From Prorocentrum cordatum (Eukaryota): DNA of 44,116 bases. The stretch spans positions 620,001-664,116 of the forward strand of contig CAUYUJ010000214.1 in NCBI GenBank assembly GCA_963575745.1, written 5' to 3'. The position numbers and the translations under genes were made by a program. Each line of letters opens with the position of its first letter. Position 1 is the stretch's first letter. This document shows, one piece after another, positions 14,048-38,684 of the stretch. Under the pieces are notes generated by a model. The model saw nothing but the letters and a program-made list of their open reading frames with translations. It was not told the DNA's origin and searched no databases.

Positions 14048-14313
14048 GTAAGTTGGACTCGTCCCTCTACAGGAGGAATGTTCAAAAATAGTCAGAACTA
14101 GTCTGGGGACAATTTTGGTGAGTATTTTTTAAATGACCAACAATGGCAAATTTGCAAACATTTCGACTACTTTGGAAACAACTATTTTTGAATATTTTGG
14201 AAATAATCAAAATAGTAAAAACAAATCACATGTTTTGACCATGTTGGAGTATGTGTTGGGTATTGTTTATGTTTCGTCGAAAATCCTTCTGTAGGGGGAC
14301 ACGCCCGACTTAA
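14048..14313. mobile_element. MITE family A copy (longer internal region)
   Basis: Same termini and core; flanks ACATATAC/AGATGTAC (6/8). Confidence 0.75.
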
Positions 14314-14602: not shown

Positions 14603-14999
14603 ACGTCAAATTTTTTTCGGGACGGCGTCCCTGGAAGCCCGCTTCGCTCCCCAGGACCGGCGTTTCGTCCCGAGTCGTGCTCTTTCACGGCCCCGAGGCC
14701 CGGAGAGGGCCCCGCGAGGCCGAAAGTGGCCAAACGCCTCCCCTCCGGAGTTTTCCTAAGACGCGATCGTGTCTGGGTTCCACTATTCATGGCGGCAACA
14801 TCGCAGAGCGGATCTTGTTCGGAAAAGACTGGGATGGGCCCGGTATTTGAGAATCTCGGGGTCGGATCAGCGCTGCGAACATGGCCGGGTGATTGGCTGG
14901 CCGAGTGATTGGATCAGCGTTGCTAACACCCGGGGGGTGAGTGGTTGGGGGGCTGCGACGGAACATCGGAGAGGAAGGAAGATCTGGAACGAAAGAAAA

Positions 15000-15670
15000 G
15001 GGGAGGAGGAGGAGGAGGAGGAGGAGGAGGAGGAGGAGGAGGACGAGTCCTGGTGGAAGGTCCTCGTCCTGGAGGAGGGGCCCTGGAGGAGGAGGAGGAG
15101 GAGGAGGAGGAGGAGGAGGAGGAGGAGAGAGGAGGAGGAGGAGGAGGAGGAGGGGAGGGGGAGGGGAGGGGGAGGGGGGGAGGAGGGGGAGGAGGAGGAG
15201 GAGGAGGAGGAGGAGGAGGAGGAGGAGGAGGAGGAGGAGGAGGAGGAGGAGGAGGAGGAGGAGCAGCAGGGGGTGGGGGAGGGGGAGGAGGTGAGGAGGA
15301 GAGGAGGAGGAGGGAGGAGGAGGAGGAGGAGGAGGAGGAGGAGGGAGGAGGAGGAGGAGGAGGAGAGGAGGAGGAGGAGGAGGAGGAGGGAGGAGGAGGA
15401 GGAGGAGGAGGAGGAAGGAGGAGGTGAGGGAGGAGGAGGAGGAGGAGGAGGAGGAGGAGGAGGAGGAGAGGAGAGGAGGAGGAGGAGGAGGCGGAGGAGG
15501 AGAGGAGGAGGAGGAGGAGGAGGAGGAGGAGGAGGAGGAGGAGGAGGGGAGGAGGAGGAGGAGGAGGAGGAGGAGGAGGAGGAGGAGGAGGAGGAGAGAG
15601 GGGAGGAGGAGGAGGAGGAGGAGGAGGAGGAGGAGGAGGAGGATCAGGAGGAGGAGGAGGAGGAGGAGGA
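15000..15670. repeat. (GGA)n tract, representative of many GGA/CCT tracts in the window
   Basis: Seen directly; similar tracts at 1-149, 2470-2640, 3465-3760, 5553-5680, 12845-12993, 19330-19540, 36040-36680, 37620-37860 and 42233-42365. Confidence 0.95.
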
Positions 15671-16139
15671 GTCCTGGTGGAATGGTCCTCGATCCTGGGG
15701 CACTCTTTGAGATCCCCTTCTCATGCTGAGGGCCTCGGCAGCCCAGCCCGAAACCGCCAGACGACCCCAAGACCGCCCCCCCAGACCTCTCGGGGGGCAC
15801 GCCTTCCCTCCCTCCTCCTCCTCTCCTCCTCCCCTCCCCCTCCTCCTCCTCGTCCTCCTTCTACCCCTCTCTGCGCTCGCCTCATTCACCTCCTCCTCCT
15901 CCCTCCTGCTCCTCCTCCTCCTCCCTCCTCCTCCTCCTCCTCAACCTCCTCCCTTTCTCCCCTCTCTCCTCGCCTGGTCCGTCCATGTCCCCGCGATTGA
16001 CCAAGGGCTGCCTCCCAGGCCAGACTGCTGGCCGCTCCCAGGCCACGTTCGAGAGGGAGCGTGGTGCTGCATCCGAGGGTAGGGCCCCGAGATCCGACGC
16101 TCCAGCAAAGATTGGAGCGGGCGGCTGCTGGCTGTCTTT

Positions 16140-16290
16140 TGCCTCCCGGAGCCCTCTCCGGGTCTCGGGAGCGCCGAACAGCGACTTCAGGATGCAGAAG
16201 AAGACAAAAGCAGACATCGGCCTCCCGGAGCCCTCTCTGAGTCTCGGGAGCGTCGAAAAGCGACTTCAGGCTGCAAAAGCAGACAGGTGG
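16140..16290. repeat. ~79-bp tandem duplication
   Basis: GCCTCCCGGAGCCCTCTC.G.GTCTCGGGAGCG.CGAA.AGCGACTTCAGG.TGCA occurs twice. Confidence 0.85.
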
Positions 16291-16351: not shown

Positions 16352-16566
16352 GAGAGTTCGCGCTGCCAGTGGATGGTGTTCGCTTTCTTGGGATAGCGGG
16401 ATACGAACACGACCCTCGCCTTCCAAGACTCGGACTTCGCATTCTTGAGGAGCGACCTCGCCTGCTGGACTTTACGGCCGATTCCGCTTTCTGGCATACG
16501 AACCTATATTTCCGGCGCTCGGACACCGACCAGGGAAAAAGCGATTTGGATGAGAGAATCGTTTGA
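16352..16566 (+). CDS. Probable terminal exon of an upstream gene (uncharacterised, possibly SAM-methyltransferase-like)
   Basis: Non-repetitive, protein-like (G)EFALPVDGVRFLGIAGYEHDPRLPRLGLRILEERPRLLDFTADSAFWHTNLYFRRSD...IV*; ag|G acceptor at 16350-16351; phase fits candidate exon 11511-11553. Confidence 0.5.
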
Positions 16567-16596
16567 ACCGCCCATACCCAGAGAGCTGGTGTGCTT

Positions 16597-16618
16597 TCCG
16601 TAGACATGCCAGCTCAAG
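16597..16618 (+). other. Relic dinoflagellate spliced leader (DinoSL) upstream of the GT31 gene
   Basis: TCCGTAGACATGCCAGCTCAAG matches DinoSL DCCGTAGCCATTTTGGCTCAAG at 17/22 positions without gaps, ending 58 nt before the ATG. Confidence 0.75.
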
Positions 16619-16676
16619 AGCGGTAGCTTCCGATGTTGATATCAAGCGCTGGTCAAAGCAATCAGTGTTTCCGATC

Positions 16677-17156
16677 ATGCAGTTGTTTCGCATGATTTGC
16701 ATGACGTTACCCGCGATAGCGATTTGCAGTGACCTCCATGATACGGCATGTCTCATACAGGCTCAGCGGTCGCACACATACAGTGGCATACAGTATGTCA
16801 TTCAAACAGGGGCGTCGTCAGTTTGGAGGGCAGCGCTGATGCAGTCGACTTGGATGCAAACTCAGCTGCGTGACGGCGATGGTGCTATACATGTCTGTGG
16901 CCCAGGGGACTGCGATAATGCCACGTTGAAGTCGAAGGTAGTAATCGACGAAGATTTTGAGGGTTGCGAGAAGAACCAGTGTAATGATTACATGAAGTCC
17001 GGTGTCAAGCTCCCAGCAGGCTTAACATACATGCACCAGCAGTTGGAACATCGCAAGATGCCGATGCCGGCATGGTGGGTGATGAAGGATGACGATACGT
17101 GGATTGACGCTCGTAACCTGAATACGTATCTCGAGCGGTATGACCCTGCAGACCCT
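16677..17156 (+). CDS. Fringe-like / GT31 glycosyltransferase, exon 1 (signal/anchor-like N-terminus, DDD motif)
   Basis: ATG at 16677 gives MQLFRMICMTLPAIAICS..., then IQYVIQTG..RAALMQSTW (Fringe 'hxhKT..R...TW' type) and WWVMKDDDTWIDARNLNTYLERYDPADP (GT31 DxD region). The 3' end is uncertain: 17147 if a GC donor is used, or 17156-17158 at the parsimonious junction. Confidence 0.88.
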
Positions 17157-17649
17157 ATCCAGCTGCCTGTTGGAAGTCCCGCCACAGTGCCAGCCCACCA
17201 TTCTGGGTGGCGAACAGGATGCCGTCGCGCGAGACACCTCGTGTCCCCAGGTTTCGGGGGGCCGCGATGAGGATGATGGAGATGATGCGCATGATGGGGA
17301 TGACGACGAGAAGGAGGGTGAGGAGGAGGAGGAGCAGGAGCAGGAGGAGAAGAAGGAGGACAAGGAAGGCCGTCACATGTGACACCCCACGTCTTCACTT
17401 CGTGAGGAGCCTTCATGAAGCTCACTTGGGCCGTCTTTGGGCTCACTTGGGCTTCTCCAGGGCAGTTTTGGGGGTCCCTTGGGCCCGCCTTTGGCCGCTT
17501 TGGGGCCCTCTTAGGCCGTGTTGGTTCTCTCGAGGGCCGTCTTGGGGCCCTCTGGGGGGGGGGATGTTTGAGCCAGCATGGGGCCGTCTTGGGCCGTTGA
17601 GGGGCTTCGTGAGGCCGCTGTGTGATGGCCGAAAGAAGGATATCTAAGG

Positions 17650-17810
17650 TTAAGTCGGGCCTGTCCCTCTACAGGTGGAATATTCAAAAATAGTGAAAAA
17701 ATAGTCTGGGGGCTATTATTTGACCATGTTTGAGCAGTTTTTAAGGTATTGTTTGGGTATTTTTTATTTTTCGCCCCAAATCGGCCTGTAAGGGGACAGG
17801 CACGACTTAA
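17650..17810. mobile_element. MITE family A (hAT-like, 8-bp TSD), copy within the GT31 insertion
   Basis: TIRs TTAAGTCGGGCCTGTCCC...GGGACAGGCACGACTTAA; perfect flanking duplication ATCTAAGG at 17642-17649 and 17811-17818. Confidence 0.85.
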
Positions 17811-19553
17811 ATCTAAGGCTGCCTTGCGTCCCTCCACATGCTCTCCTGGGCCGTCTCGGGGCAGACCCGGAGGCCTCCTGGGCAAGCGTGGGGTCAGCTC
17901 CGCTGTGGGTCATCGCGGGGCCCTCTCGAGGGCCTCTTAGTAGGGCCATCTTGGGGCCGGGTTGCAGGTCTCTTGGGCCGCGCGAGGCGAACGGACTCCC
18001 GAACAGGACAGAACGCGAAAGCAGATCACCAATTCAAGGAACAGCAGCGTTGTCGACGTGTCTAGGGGACTTGGTTGGGGGCCCTCGTGGGCCCCCTTTC
18101 AAAGCCTCTTATGCCTGCTTCAGGTGACCTTGGGCCGCCTCCGGGCAATCCTGGGGCGGCCTGAAGGCGTCTCTGGTCACCTTGGCGGCCCGGGTTGCCT
18201 GCCTGGGCCGTCTTGGACGTCCACGGGCGCGCGGCTCCCCCGCGTCTGTCATTCGCAAGGCTTGTGGCCAAGAGGGGCGCAGGCTCCCTGATTTCTTGCA
18301 AGGGGCCTTCGCCTCTCGAGGGGGGCGGTGCACGCGGCATCCTGCCCGAGGGGGGGCCCCACGGCAGGTTCGTGCGACGAGGGCACGCCAGCGAAGGCGT
18401 TCAAGGCCGGCTTCTGCACCGTGGGAGCACCGAGGGACACGGTGACGGCACGGGACCCGGCGGAATTCAATCCTGAACGATCGGGGCCGCGATCGGGGGT
18501 TGAACGATCGACGCGGTGTCAAAAACCTACCGAACGAAGGATTCAGAATTTACCCAACGAAGGTTTCAGAAATGCTGCCATGAAGCACTTGGAATCCTAC
18601 GGTCGGGAACTTTGGATATCGTGTCGCTCGTCATCGAGGATCGAATATTTTAATATCACCTGATACCTAACCCTAATACCTTAAGATAACGGTGAAGATG
18701 TAGCCTCACTCAGGGTCCCCGTCTTTGCATCAGGGATATTACCTCTGGGCGGTTTGACTCGATGCATCTGCAGAACAGGCAGCCTACCCCTAATCGTCGA
18801 CTCCCAGGAAAAGAAGGGGAAACTATGGGAGGTGGGGGGGAAGACGAAAACCCAGAAGATATGGGAAAACATTGGGAATCCTGTTATCTGTGTCTATTGA
18901 TTTGTGTGTCCCAGGGCCGCCAGCGCGGTATGCTACATTACGCGTCACCTGACGCGGGAAGTTTACGCGCGCATGTCGGCGCAGACGACTCAACTCGTTG
19001 TTGCGTCGCTAGGGTGTCCTCCTCTTCCTCCTCCTCCTCCTCCTCCCTCCTCCTCCGTTTCCTCCTCCTCCTCCTCCTTCTCCTCCTCCTCCTCCTCCTC
19101 CTCCCTCCTCCTCCTCCTTCCTCCCTCTTCATCCTCCTCCTCCCTCCGGGGTCCGAGCCTCTGCGGAGCCTCTCTCGACGCCCCGCGGGGGAGCGGGGCG
19201 GCAGGCCGCCTACGCGCACAAAGAGGAGCAGAGCGCGTCGCCCGGGCGCGGCGGCGGGCCGGCGCGGCGTCCAGACGTTCCGCGGCCGTGCCACGCCTCA
19301 AAGTGCCAGGTGGCACGGTGTCGGGCAAGGACGAGGAGGAGGAGGAGCAGGAGGAGCAGGAGGAGCAGGAGGAGGATGGGGATGGGGAGGGGGAGGGGGA
19401 GTGGGGGAGGCGGAGGAGGAGGAGGAGGAGGAGGAGGAGGAGGAGAAGGAGGAGCAGGAGCCGGAGGAGGAGCAGGAGGACGAGGAGGAGGAGGAGGAGG
19501 AGGACGAGGAGGAGGAGGAGGAGGCGGACGAGGAGGAAGCAACGTGCCAAGAG

Positions 19554-19973
19554 GCACGGTGTCGGATTATGATCGGGGGGAACGTCGGGGGATGCCCCGG
19601 GCTGTGTGGTGGAGCTGGTGTGGTTGTCAGCTGGCGCTTGGCGGCAGCGTTGGCCTCCCACGGTCGACAGTGGGTGGATGGAATAAGACATAGCGTCATC
19701 CGTGGATCGGGCGATTGGTACTGGGACTTGCAGTTGCCGGCGATGGCCAAGCACATCGAACCACGTACAGAAGTGATTTACGACAAGTCTTTCCACACAT
19801 GGGGACCCTATGACGAGCCTTGTCTCAGTGGTGCAAAACCTTCACAATATGCGGAAATCTCTTGCTATACAACTGCAGCATGCAAGTGTGCATTTGCAGC
19901 TAAACCAATTTCCTTTCATATCAAGGTCAATTTCAACGACTCCATCCAGAAGCTGACGGAGACTGGCTGTTGA
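19554..19973 (+). CDS. Fringe-like / GT31 glycosyltransferase, exon 2
   Basis: Same frame as exon 1: (ARCR)IMIGGNVGGCPGLCGGAGVVVSWRLA...WYWDLQL...KPISFHIK...GC*. It contains the GGAG-x-h-S motif, an acidic residue at the D-x-x-L position and the C-terminal SFH typical of the Fringe/C1GALT group. AG|G acceptor at 19552-19553. The joined protein is about 295 aa. Confidence 0.88.
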   Translation, partial: ARCRIMIGGNVGGCPGLCGGAGVVVSWRLAAALASHGRQWVDGIRHSVIRGSGDWYWDLQLPAMAKHIEPRTEVIYDKSFHTWGPYDEPCLSGAKPSQYAEISCYTTAACKCAFAAKPISFHIKVNFNDSIQKLTETGC

Positions 19974-21355
19974 AACGGATACATGTGTTTGCGGCCGCCA
20001 TCACATGCCGAGTTTGTGCGTACAATTGTTATCTTCCCAATGAAATTTGTCGCTGCAAGATGTTCCCGATTGATGCTCGGCCTGTGCGGCGCCGGCGCCG
20101 GCTTGCGCCGCCAGCGGCACTGTGTTGTTTAGTCGATGCCTCTTACTGAAAAATCCCCGCCTTCGGCAGGCAGCTGTGTTCGGTTGGGACGTCGCACGCC
20201 CAGGGGAACCCCTCGCTTTTGTAAGCGTCTGCCAGGGCCAGGGCTCTCGCAACACGCTTCTGCGCAAGTAAGAGCCATCCCCCCCGCTTGAGCCCCACTG
20301 CGCTGGGCCTCTAAGTGCGACCCTTTGCTTGTACGGTTATGACACGGATGTTTGAGTACACGTCTAGTCACCAATCAGCATCACCATCACAGTCGGCATC
20401 ACCATCCTATTTCTAGTCGGCACCACCATCATCATAACCATCACCGTCGCACTATCGCCCTCACCACCAGAACTGTTGGTGGCCTAGCGTACGTAATCGG
20501 TTCGTTTTGCGACGGCCTTGCGAAATTATTCCATTGGATGAATATACATTGTGTTATTATGGTAAATCCGTCGGTCAATACCAAGGAGACCCTCACGACC
20601 ATTGCCCCCCTGGTCTACGATGCGTACAGGTGCATCAACTACCGACGTCACGCCCAGATCCCCCTGCCGACAGCAGCCCTCTTCGACACAATGACACAAT
20701 GGGTCCGTGAAAGTGTGCGTAAACACGATCCTTCCACCCGCGTCCTTATCCGACGTTGGATTCCGGGCGCCTCCCATCCGCTCCCGTGGGCGCCATGATA
20801 CCCTTACCACTTCTAGTCCCACCAACCCTCCGACTTCCCACCCTAACCACCTATCGACCTCCAGCCACCACCGACTTGGCACTCCGACGTCCAGCTTTTA
20901 GCAACCGACTCCCCCCCCTCCGCCACCCATCGCCCTCCACCACCCGTCGCACACCGGCCTCCGCCGACCCGCGGCTTTCGACCTCCAGCCTCAATCAGCT
21001 CGGCTCCAGCCTCCAGCACCCGACCTGCCACCCCCACCACCCCCAATCGACATGCAGACTTTACCACAGCTCTATTGGCCACACGTCCTAGACAAGCATC
21101 AGCCTTCCACGAGGGTTCAACCTCAACGGGCAATGTCGCCAGGACGATCCGACACCAGCTCTGGCGACCTCGACATGGACCAGCACCGACGCCGACTCCT
21201 ACGCTAGATCGGCCACGCAACTCCGACTCTCCCACCTGCTCGGGCTCCAGCTCCGGCGCCCTCCCGGCGCTACCTCCGGCTCCGACCCCGGCCTCGGCTC
21301 CAGCTCCAGGCCCCGCAGGTCTTCTCCGGCTCCCGGCGTCCCCTAGAATCCGACA

Positions 21356-25338: not shown

Positions 25339-25360
25339 TCCGTGGCAATTTAGGCTCAAG
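25339..25360 (+). other. Relic dinoflagellate spliced leader (DinoSL)
   Basis: TCCGTGGCAATTTAGGCTCAAG matches DinoSL at 19/22 positions without gaps and is followed 3 nt later by ATGATG. Confidence 0.85.
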
Positions 25361-26538: not shown

Positions 26539-26969
26539 CCCGTGCGCTTGCGATGCTCGTGGACAGAAGCGTAGCGACGCACGCTGGCCATGGCATGCTC
26601 GCCAACATGGAGAACAGGCGGGGCGCCTCGGCAGAGCGCCAGCGGCTTGGTCGGCCAGATGCCGGCAGGCCGAGCAGGGTCCTTGCGGGGTGTTCTGTAC
26701 CCGCTCCTTCGCACGAGCTGGTGAGGGAGAGGCGGAGAACGTGGTGCCGCGCCTCACAGTGCCAGGGGGCACGGTGTCGGGCAAGGAGGAGGAGGAGGAG
26801 GAGGAGGAGGAGCAGGAGGAGGAGGAGGAAGAGGAGGAGGAGCACGAGGAGGAGGAGGTGGATGAGGTCAATCAGAGGCAGCGCCCTTGGGGGGGACTCT
26901 ACCCTCTCCCCTCGGACAGCCTCTGGGGACCACCAGCAACCTTTCGGAGCCCCATGTCGAACGCCTCTG

Positions 26970-27565: not shown

Positions 27566-28217
27566 AAAGCTGAGGGGCCCGGAACAAGCCTTGTGTGACC
27601 GAGCATGACTGAACTTACGTCAGCATTTGGAACATCACGACGTCGGAGGTCCCTGTTTTTGGAGGAGGTCTCTGGAGGGTCCGAGGCTCAGGTCCCGGGC
27701 AGCTCGCGGAGGCCGCTGTAGGTCTCAGGATGCTCTGGAGGCCTCCCAGATGGGGTCCGAGCAAATGTGGTCGGAGGATTGAGCCGCATCGCCGATGAAA
27801 CAGACGTCCATCAGGAGGAGAAAAAACACACAGACAGAATTCATCGTCGATTTCCTAGAAAGTAGAGGTAGATATGGGAAGTGGGGGGGACGACGAAGTC
27901 CAGATAATAATGAGAACAACAATTAGAGCATCCTTGGATTTGTGTGTCTTTCTTCGTGTGTCCTTGGGCCCCTCGAGTCCAGCGGCGACGCCAGGAGGGA
28001 GAACACCCTGCTCCCGACGGCGCCGCCTCGGCGATGCGGCGCGACCCGCCGACCCGTTCGGCTCCGGCCGCCCGGACGGCCAGAGTGCGGAGGCCCCCCA
28101 AAGGGTGTGGTGACCAACGCCGCGTGGCGGGCGAGTCGGTGGGGATGCGGGGCCTCCGCACGGTCTCTTGCGACTGGGGCTCGGGTCGCTCTCCGAGGAC
28201 TTCTCGGGCGACTGGAG

Positions 28218-28376
28218 TGAAGTCGGGCACGTCCCTCTACGGGAGGAATATTCAAAAAGATGTTAAAATAGCCAGGGGACGATTTTTTGAGCATCGTTGG
28301 ATCATTGTGGGGCATGTTTCTGGTCTTTTTTTTTTGTTGCTCAAAATCCGCCTGCAGGGGGACATGCCCGACCTAA
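28218..28376. mobile_element. MITE family A copy
   Basis: Same TIRs and AT-rich core; flanks GACTGGAG/GACTTGAG (7/8). Confidence 0.85.
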
Positions 28377-37016: not shown

Positions 37017-38684
37017 TCGGGCGTCCAAACTCTCGTGGAGGGCGGCGGGCTCGGGCTGCGGACGACGATCAGTGGAGACGAGGCATGTTGCCAAAGAGTT
37101 CCCAGATGTCTAGAACATGGTTTGAACATGCTTAAAGCATCTCAATGTATGTGTTTGCTTATTCCATGTTTACAGCATTTTCAATCCAATGGTCGGATGG
37201 TTAGAGTGTCCATTGCCATGCTATCCACAAGGCTCGGGTGTCGAGGGCCGAGAGCGTCTGTGCGCGTTTGGCTCTTGAGTTCAGTCGGGCATGTCCCCCC
37301 GACGGTCAAGTCGTCACGTTTAACGTGCACGGCCCCCCTTGAGGGACAAGAAGTGATTCGATTTCCATGCCCGCGATACGCCGACTCCCCTGGTCAAAAC
37401 CAGCTTGGAGAACAGTCAAAGCGTGCGTGCACGCTACACGTAGTCCATGTCTCAGAGCGCACCTGCACGCTAAACGTTTTTATGTTGGCGATATGTTTAC
37501 ATTGCCACGTGCACTCCATACGATTACTCTTCGGCTCACCTCTCCACTCCGTCCCCTACTCCCCCCATCCATCCCCGCTTTGCCTTTGGTATCGCGTCGG
37601 CTGCCCCTACGCACCTAGGAGGTAGAGGAAGAGGAAGAGGAGGAGGAGGAGGAGGAGGAGGAGGAGGGGAGGAGGAGGAGGAGGAGCAGGAGGAGGAGGG
37701 GGGGAGGAGGAGGAGGAGCAGGAGGTAGAGAAGGAGGGTGAGGGTGAGGAGGAGGGGGGAGGAAAGCAGGAGGAGGAGGAGGATCGGGAGAAGGAGAAGG
37801 AAGATGAGGCGGAGAAGGAAGAGGAGGATGAGGAGGCGACGGAGGAGGAGGAGGAGGAGGCAGAAGTGGCACGGGCCTGCGGAGGTCGACAGGCCAAGTG
37901 TGGTTCCGGGGACTGCTGAGCCAGATCGGCAGTGAAAACATAGGAGCACTCCAAACGTTGATATGCTTGAGACATCCGACGTGCACGCTAAACGCGGCAC
38001 AACCGCGTATAGAGTGCAGTGATTTTTCGGAAGTGCACTCTATACGACCCCCGAACTGCGCGCACATCAAAGTCACCACGTGCACTCGATCTGTGGCGAC
38101 TTGACCATACAGGAGGCATGCTCAAAAAGACTTCAAAGATAGTCTGGGGGACGATTGTTTCACATACTTGTTGGCAACTATTTGAATATGTATTAAACAT
38201 AGTTGCATATTTTGACAAGTGTTCACGCTTCCTCCAAAGCTCGGGCCGAACGAACGGGAGGGATAGGGAAAGGGGGTGTCACGACATCTGCTGCACGCAG
38301 CGTGTTCCGGCCCCGCCGCCGGGCCCACTCCTCGACACATGGGCGCCTCCTGGCGCCGGGAGGCGCTTGGAACATCAGCTTTCGTGAGCTGATTCTCTAC
38401 CCTGCCCTTTGCTGTCCCCCCTGTGATTTGTGGGGGGTCAAGACCCGCTTTCCTTTGTTTCACTGGACTGACATGCTTACCTGCAGCGCCGGCGTTTGCG
38501 CCCAAGCAAAAAGAGCGCCTATCCCCCAGAGCAGCTGCAGCGGGAGATTGGCAGCAATAGCAGGGCATCGGTCGATTCGATCGAGTTCTCCGAGCTGAGC
38601 CCATCCCGACACGCTGAGGGTGATCGAGGGAGGGAGCACGAGCGAGAACGAGTTTGGTGGCGGGACTAGCCATCCCGACGAGCC

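Follow-up and report, generated by a model that had tools for sequence, protein, structure and literature searches.

How does a gene that is interrupted by more than 2 kb of DNA with no usable splice site at either border give rise to a message in which its two halves are joined to the exact base? The question is raised by a locus of the dinoflagellate Prorocentrum cordatum, situated in a stretch of 44,116 nucleotides (nt) that corresponds to positions 620,001 to 664,116 of the forward strand of contig CAUYUJ010000214.1 (GenBank assembly GCA_963575745.1). This whole stretch is called the window, and all coordinates refer to it. The locus holds a predicted glycosyltransferase gene on the forward strand. 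The coding part of exon 1 (16677-17156) is stop-free from its ATG at 16677 and encodes 160 amino acids (aa) ending in YDPADP, and that of exon 2 (19566-19973) resumes in the same frame with IMIGG and encodes 135 aa followed by a stop codon (19971-19973). Between the two halves lies an insert of 2409 nt (17157-19565), or 3 x 803 nt. An initial annotation, made from the sequence alone, had described both halves as free of stops and frameshifts and as joinable in frame into YDPADP-IMIGG, which the translations and the length of the insert bear out. Translation running on into the insert would meet an in-frame stop at 17268, and the insert has 22, 12 and 14 stops in its three frames. In the RNA data analysed here, the insert is exactly absent from the message. 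We propose that it is a non-canonical intron that was gained after retroposition of the gene and is removed precisely from RNA, an explanation that we regard as probable, with considerable reserve.

Identity of the gene and the join seen in RNA

Exon 1 begins with a hydrophobic N-terminus and carries the DxD motif in the form DDD at residues 138-140. The Pfam Fringe profile (PF02434) matched exon 1 with 17 bits (E 0.004) and a longer open reading frame (ORF) with 19.4 bits (E 0.00073), both under the curated cut-off of 21 bits. A search of 1.84 billion representative proteins retrieved 24 relatives at E <=0.001, five of them at <=1e-10, the best being 41% identical (E 3.4e-21), whereas a homologue search of exon 1 against longer proteins gave 288 candidates, 0 of which were scored. 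Eight relatives were aligned with both gene halves (alignment A1, 10 rows). PF02434 was matched by 8 of the 10 rows (best E 3.1e-10), and comparison of the A1 profile with structures in the PDB retrieved the beta-1,3-glucosyltransferase B3GLCT (E 2.2e-08), C1GALT1 (2.2e-05) and chondroitin sulfate synthase 3. Together with the DDD motif, these matches uphold the assignment to Fringe/GT31 made in the initial annotation, and the gene is predicted from sequence to encode a glycosyltransferase of the Fringe-like/GT31 family.

A run search listed 24 rows. In 20 of them, from 8 studies, at most about one third of the sampled words was present, which is approximately what the exons should contribute. 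One run from each of four studies was mapped, in every case as assembled contigs: X14 and X17, recorded as polyA RNA-seq, and X1 and X8, which have no recorded kind and cover the exons only. In each of the four, one contig joins position 17156 directly to 19566, skipping 2409 nt, with two letters at the joint that fit either side. The X1 contig (1406 nt) aligns at 16602-17156 and 19566-20367 with 0 mismatches and 0 gaps over 1357 nt. The contigs of X14 (1078 nt; 16649-17156 and 19566-20135) and X17 (667 nt; 17090-17156 and 19566-20165) also show 0 mismatches, and that of X8 (1519 nt; 16429-17156 and 19566-20356) shows 4. Read across the junction, as the initial annotation had suggested, the contigs of all four runs give YDPADPIMIGG and not YDPARCRIMIG; this is the product of precise non-canonical removal, which had been listed there as an alternative. 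Two outcomes named at the same time as speaking against that annotation, a lack of spliced transcripts and an extra exon within the interval, did not materialise: the joined contigs are present in every run, and no other joint was found in the four runs, hence no hidden exon inside the insert.

Contigs running from either exon into the insert were likewise absent from the four runs. The unique parts of the insert (17338-17605, 17874-18409 and 18544-18811), used solely as a silent-stretch control, had a depth of 0 in all four, as did the upstream bin 16400-16533 in three of them; in X8, whose transcript contig reaches 16429, this bin is covered. The cover can therefore not be put down to carried-over DNA. 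Within the insert, RNA cover is confined to repeats, chiefly the end of a miniature inverted-repeat transposable element (MITE) at 17645-17698. These pieces differ by 1-4 mismatches and are loose at both ends, and they therefore derive from other loci. The joined contigs agree with the untranslated regions as well, and that of X8 spans a relic spliced leader (described below) plus 170 nt upstream. The transcripts thus stem either from this locus or from a copy with the same flanks, and not from a parent gene dispersed elsewhere. Two metagenome scans, whose queries were the exon 1 peptides and the 44 nt that open exon 2, found nothing.

The exact join also agrees with the protein family. The relatives in A1 sit on contigs of 0.9-2.4 kb, probably transcripts, which reveal the mature protein and are silent on introns at this site. 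In A1, the end of exon 1 and the start of exon 2 fall in adjacent columns, with no gap and no overlap. With the exact join, the distance between KDDx and xS[W/N] amounts to 44 residues, as it does in the three closest homologues (P0003, P0004 and P0006); in the other six of the nine homologues examined it is 42, 42, 42, 43, 43 and 60 residues.

Borders of the insert

The insert starts with ATCCAGC and ends with TCGG, and its borders are therefore AT..GG. The AT at 17157-17158 recurs at 19566-19567, and the cut may be shifted by 1-2 nt to the right, giving TC..GA or CC..AT. The direct repeat across the border is limited to these 2 nt, the next letters differing on both sides (C17159 versus T19568). 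Since only AT is repeated, no shift of the cut yields GY..AG, and none of AT..GG, TC..GA and CC..AT is GY..AG or AT..AC on either strand. By the rules of dinoflagellate spliceosomal introns, the 5' end should be G followed by T, C or A, and the 3' end AG, usually followed by G. The skipped part begins with AT, TC or CC and ends with GG, GA or AT, while the AG|G at 19552-19554 was left unused in the four runs. U12-type AT-AC introns begin with ATATCC and end with AC. The insert departs from this type at both its ATCCAGC start and its TCGG end, and the minor spliceosome has been reported absent in other alveolates (PMC7789003; the comparisons made here with published systems draw on partial texts of the papers cited). 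The view of the initial annotation that the insert, read as AT|CC...GG|AT, lacks usable splice dinucleotides thus holds. Two further routes were considered and set aside. Recursive or nested canonical splicing would need a GY 5' site to be regenerated at 17157, which cannot happen because the base after exon 1 is A, and reading the joint on the opposite strand gives CC..AT, likewise non-canonical.

The weak inverted core that the initial annotation had noticed near the two ends is present. Its 5' arm, TGCCTGTTGG (17164-17173, forward strand), lies 7 nt inside the insert and is 9/10 complementary to the 3' arm, CCAAGAGGCA (19547-19556, forward strand), which lies 9 nt from the insert end. With the distance of inverted repeats limited to within 30 nt of both ends, as applied in PMC10666404, such a core was equalled by 1.7% of 3000 random pairs of the same spacing from the window. 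The energy of the end duplex, -24.0 kcal/mol, is unremarkable: 24% of the random pairs do as well or better, and shuffled versions of the true ends have a mean of -25.4. We therefore rejected base pairing between the insert ends as evidence of a strong guide for the cut, and the 9/10 core remains a weak hint.

Origin of the gene and make-up of the insert

A relic of the dinoflagellate spliced leader (DinoSL) is located at 16598-16618, on the coding strand, with its end 59 nt upstream of the ATG. It shows 16/21 matches to the DinoSL as printed in PMC6050394, and its local alignment score is 22, versus 16 for the 99th percentile of the null. Only two sites on the forward strand of the window, the relic included, have at least 16 DinoSL matches, and a single site of this quality, on one strand or the other, turned up in 4 of 20 shuffles. 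A second and a third relic leader, looked for between 16619 and 16678, had alignment scores of 10, equal to the null mean, and were rejected; only one relic leader is present upstream of this gene. The strand, position and score of the relic support the claim of the initial annotation that this is a retrogene, and the gene appears to have arisen by retroposition of a spliced-leader-capped mRNA. As in DinoSL-tagged dinoflagellate retrogenes, where the relic leader zone typically lies 50-100 nt upstream of the start codon (PMC6050394), the relic is found 59-79 nt upstream; this retrogene differs from them in having one relic only and a later-gained intervening sequence. A gene copied from spliced mRNA should begin intronless, and the insert is therefore most simply later than the retroposition; incompletely spliced templates are also possible in retroposition (PMC6050394).

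The likely present-day trans-splice acceptor is the AG at 16602-16603 (forward strand), inside the relic itself. The X1 contig begins at 16602 and is preceded by adapter and CA, which fits a leader ending in ...CAAG, a mere two-letter hint. The 5' untranslated region (16604-16676, forward strand) shows 0 mismatches in the RNA contigs of X1 (from 16602), X17 (from 16637) and X14 (from 16649). The 3' untranslated region (19974-20367, forward strand) is followed by the X1 contig to 20367, where adapter begins, and by the X8 contig to 20356. The X8 contig, with its 4 differences, extends 170 nt upstream through the relic leader (16429-16602), while X1 starts at 16602. This extension could be an untrimmed leader or a precursor, or another 5' end in that strain. 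A direct repeat of 66 nt is found just upstream of the gene, its two copies (16141-16206 and 16220-16285) being 89% identical and 79 nt apart. Elsewhere in the window, further spliced-leader-like relics at 25340-25360 (forward strand, 18/21 DinoSL matches) and 5548-5528 (reverse strand, 17/21) may mark more retrogenes; Pfam recognised none of the ORFs adjoining them.

The insert is a composite of several repeat types plus a unique GC-rich part. Its GC content is 0.616, versus 0.517 and 0.532 for the two exons, which are also less GC-rich than most 1-kb bins of the window. From its 5' side, it contains a GAG-rich stretch with a (GAG)n array (17308-17366), followed by degenerate GGGCCGTCTTGGGGCC-like repeats (17407-18147) that are interrupted by a 161-nt MITE (17650-17810, forward strand). 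The terminal inverted repeats of the MITE begin with TTAAGTCG, and its 8-nt target duplication, ATCTAAGG, occupies 17642-17649 and 17811-17818. Further along lies a (TCC)n array (19017-19143, forward strand), complementary to the (GAG)n at 17308-17366 and 19328-19537. A 123-nt repeat (19288-19410), 85% identical to 26744-26867, consists of a GTGCC..GGCAC hairpin, GGTGTCGG and a (GAG)n run, and it overlaps a (GAG)n / (AGGAGG)n array (19328-19537, forward strand). The last 22 nt of the insert (19544-19565, forward strand) comprise the same GTGCC..GGCAC hairpin motif and then GGTGTCGG, and thus represent a third, partial copy of the 123-nt repeat. They match 19303-19324 and 26759-26780 at 20/22 positions, the likeness stopping exactly at the border between insert and exon, and they include 9 nt of the 10-nt 3' arm (19547-19556) as well as the unused AG|G (19552-19554). 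The motif GGCACGGTGTCGG occurs exactly three times, at 19312, 19553 and 26768, where 0.15 occurrences are expected; three occurrences were not attained in any of 100 shuffles. The recurrence of this motif, as well as the accumulation of nested repeats, had been anticipated in the initial annotation.

The MITE belongs to a family of about 160 nt, with other copies in the window at 28217-28376 (75%), 14049-14114 (82%), 38108-38163 and 14313-14289. The segment 17645-17698 is matched by many RNA contigs that derive from other loci and break off at 17650. In each of the four runs, the 5' end of the MITE is carried by numerous RNA contigs, its summed depth reaching as much as 1812 in X1, and MITE copies therefore sit in many transcripts. 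Low-complexity GAG/GGA/GGC arrays of more than 1 kb, open in several frames on both strands, lie at 14760-15860 in the window, and similar arrays occur in the insert. Of the 152 ORFs of at least 90 aa in the window that are not of low complexity, 150 were compared with Pfam, and they revealed no recognisable gene besides the present one; a search of the whole window with Rfam gave 0 matches.

The initial annotation had traced the insert to a mobile element, a part of its account that the analysis does not support. Within the window, the insert ends have no other copy except the 22-nt 3' motif, the 5' end being without a relative. A Pfam scan of seven overlapping ORFs for a transposase or other gene gave only low-complexity matches below the cut-off, and the insert ends show neither a usual terminal repeat nor a target duplication. 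We infer that the insertion of a mobile element is no more likely than the capture, at a break and with 2-nt microhomology, of a piece of repeat-rich DNA.

Competing explanations and known intron systems

In the explanation that we favour, a single-copy-looking Fringe-like (GT31) gene would have arisen by retroposition of a spliced-leader-capped mRNA and later taken up 2409 nt of repeat-rich DNA within the conserved YDPxxP-hhhG stretch. The gene would still be expressed, the whole insert being excised from the transcript to the exact base so that the ancestral YDPADP-IMIGG is restored, despite borders that fit neither GT/GC/GA...AG|G nor AT-AC. The RNA would thus come from this very locus, and removal would take place at the RNA level. 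The borders would presumably be recognised by something other than the usual dinucleotides, such as a relaxed or altered spliceosome, a separate pathway, or pairing of the ends or small hairpins. Several observations weigh against this account. The RNA evidence consists entirely of contigs, which are blind to unspliced precursors, to rare isoforms and to the gene copy of origin. The insert is seen in this assembly alone, so an insert-free copy is possible, and no run with half or more of the stretch, DNA runs included, was among the 24 rows listed. The complementarity of the ends is weak (9/10 nt, p ~0.017, with ordinary duplex energy), and chance alone gives a 2-nt border repeat in 7% of cases. 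In a two-strand fold, the borders formed no bulge-helix-bulge and no IRE1-like loop pair, only small local hairpins at +2..+18 and -22..-9. As far as can be judged from it, the sequence offers no convincing guide for the cut, and the mechanism is not visible in it.

The most conventional alternative is ordinary dinoflagellate splicing between a donor that is either the GC at 17148 or the GA at 17151 and an acceptor at 19552-19554 (AG|G), the route preferred in the initial annotation, by which ADP would be traded for exonised ARCR to give YDP-ARCR-IMIGG. The candidate sites do exist (GC at 17148-17149, GA at 17151-17152 and AG at 19552-19553 followed by G19554) and keep the frame, and dinoflagellate introns as a rule combine such GC or GA donors with an AG|G acceptor (10.1101/2020.10.14.339549, PMC10666404). 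However, the corresponding GC-AG joint, 17147|19554, was found in 0 of the four runs, where contigs may hide a rare isoform, while 17156|19566 was found in all four. The family spacing contradicts it too: the GC-AG and GA-AG joins give 45 and 46 residues, values seen in 0 of the nine homologues, and lose a conserved proline, and a join from the GT at 17169 to the AG gives 52. YDP-ARCR-IMIGG is thereby refuted as the main product and is at best a minor form, of the rare kind that contigs would drop; as an explanation of the locus, this splicing is extremely improbable. Of the initial annotation as a whole, the retrogene, the gained intervening sequence and its absence from mRNA stand, and the shifted splicing with exonisation does not.

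A more serious contender, which we nevertheless consider unlikely, is that the mRNA comes from an insert-free, near-identical duplicate, allele or cell line, the copy in the window being a pseudogene or insertion allele that was disrupted recently and yields few transcripts or none. Borders without any splice signal are in keeping with this, and the 2-nt AT microhomology is the trace expected if filler DNA was captured during end joining. Recent duplicates abound in dinoflagellate genomes (PMC10666404, PMC11453091), contigs cannot distinguish copies, and no DNA run among the 24 rows settles the matter of a second copy. Such a copy would nonetheless have to be identical and share the flanks, given 0 mismatches over 1357 nt (X1), 1078 nt (X14) and 667 nt (X17), untranslated regions included, and given that X8 shares the flanks as well. 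Both exon halves are intact, and a composite insert with a MITE 75-82% like its relatives looks aged and not like a very recent event in one step, although a composite could be copied in at once. An assembly artefact, with a 2.4-kb repeat-rich piece misplaced in a gene whose true locus is uninterrupted, seems to us very improbable, if a little less so than the shifted splicing. The insert is rich in low-complexity repeats and is seen in this assembly only; the run search brought up no public DNA run that contains it, and both metagenome scans came back empty. Against an artefact stand borders that are clean to the base, a terminal 22-nt motif that recurs in the window, and a MITE with its own target duplication, as real genomic DNA has; it would also be unusual for an erroneous chimeric insertion to keep the flanks on both sides perfectly collinear.

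If exact removal of the insert from RNA is correct, intron gain in this lineage would need neither splice sites from the inserted DNA nor a target duplication, which bears on the origin of new introns. The retrogene mark polarises the gain, placing it after retroposition, which is rare for single cases of intron gain. Gene models restricted to GT/GC/GA-AG introns, as in PMC10666404, would mis-join or split such genes, here putting ARCR in place of ADP. A wider claim, that free-living core dinoflagellates, and not just the parasite Amoebophrya, excise kb-sized arbitrary inserts exactly without GY-AG signals, is tentative, and we place it slightly below an even chance; under it, almost any DNA landing in a coding exon could at once become an intron, with the protein unchanged.

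The available text of the Prorocentrum cordatum genome paper describes long introns rich in 'introner elements' and models only GT, GC and GA donors (PMC10666404). In the full-text literature, with few subscription journals included, we found no account of non-canonical introns in Prorocentrum or of nonconventional introns in core dinoflagellates; a review uses the phrase for Amoebophrya. The introner-like elements of Symbiodinium and Polarella glacialis, which occur in families of at least 100 copies, form introns with GH...AG from the element end plus a 4-8-nt target duplication (Roy et al., 10.1101/2020.10.14.339549). The present insert resembles them as a case of intron gain by DNA inserted into a dinoflagellate gene and removed from mRNA. 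It differs in having no 4-8-nt duplication and no GH or AG at the RNA joint, such sites being available 9 and 12 nt away and ignored.

The identical repeated intron boundaries (IRIB) of Crypthecodinium cohnii and other dinoflagellates have border repeats of 2-9 nt containing (A)GG (Mendez et al. 2015, PMC5032977). A short sequence found at both borders and once in the mRNA is common to both cases (2-9 nt there, 2 nt here), whereas the repeat here is AT, with no AGG at the cut. The nonconventional introns of euglenids have variable borders, reach several kb, carry repeats resembling target site duplications and have ends that are thought to pair, and their removal is possibly non-spliceosomal (PMC11282704). 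The general picture is similar, and the CAG at +4..+6 is present in the insert (17160-17162). Unlike in euglenids, a different lineage, the CTG at -8..-6 is absent (GGT), and the pyrimidine|purine border is found at the 5' side only.

The closest known system is that of Amoebophrya, where more than 60% of the introns of strains A25 and A120 are non-canonical and RNA-supported (Farhat et al. 2021, PMC7789003). The introner elements described there have an inverted repeat of 8-20 nt and a direct repeat of 3-5 nt and form repeated families, and the intron set analysed spans 40-1000 nt. Several differences separate the present case from these introns: the insert measures 2409 nt; its weak 9/10 core, with ordinary duplex energy, lies 7 and 9 nt from the ends; its direct repeat is limited to 2 nt (AT); only its last 22 nt and internal pieces recur within the window; and Amoebophrya is a parasite lineage to which the host here does not belong. 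The two share a dinoflagellate host, RNA support, which here comes from contigs in four of four runs, and the lack of GT-AG or fixed border dinucleotides. They also share an ambiguous cut arising from a short direct repeat and the absence of a transposase inside, and perhaps, going by the weak core, an inverted repeat near the ends. By analogy, the insert thus appears to behave as a non-canonical intron of the Amoebophrya kind.

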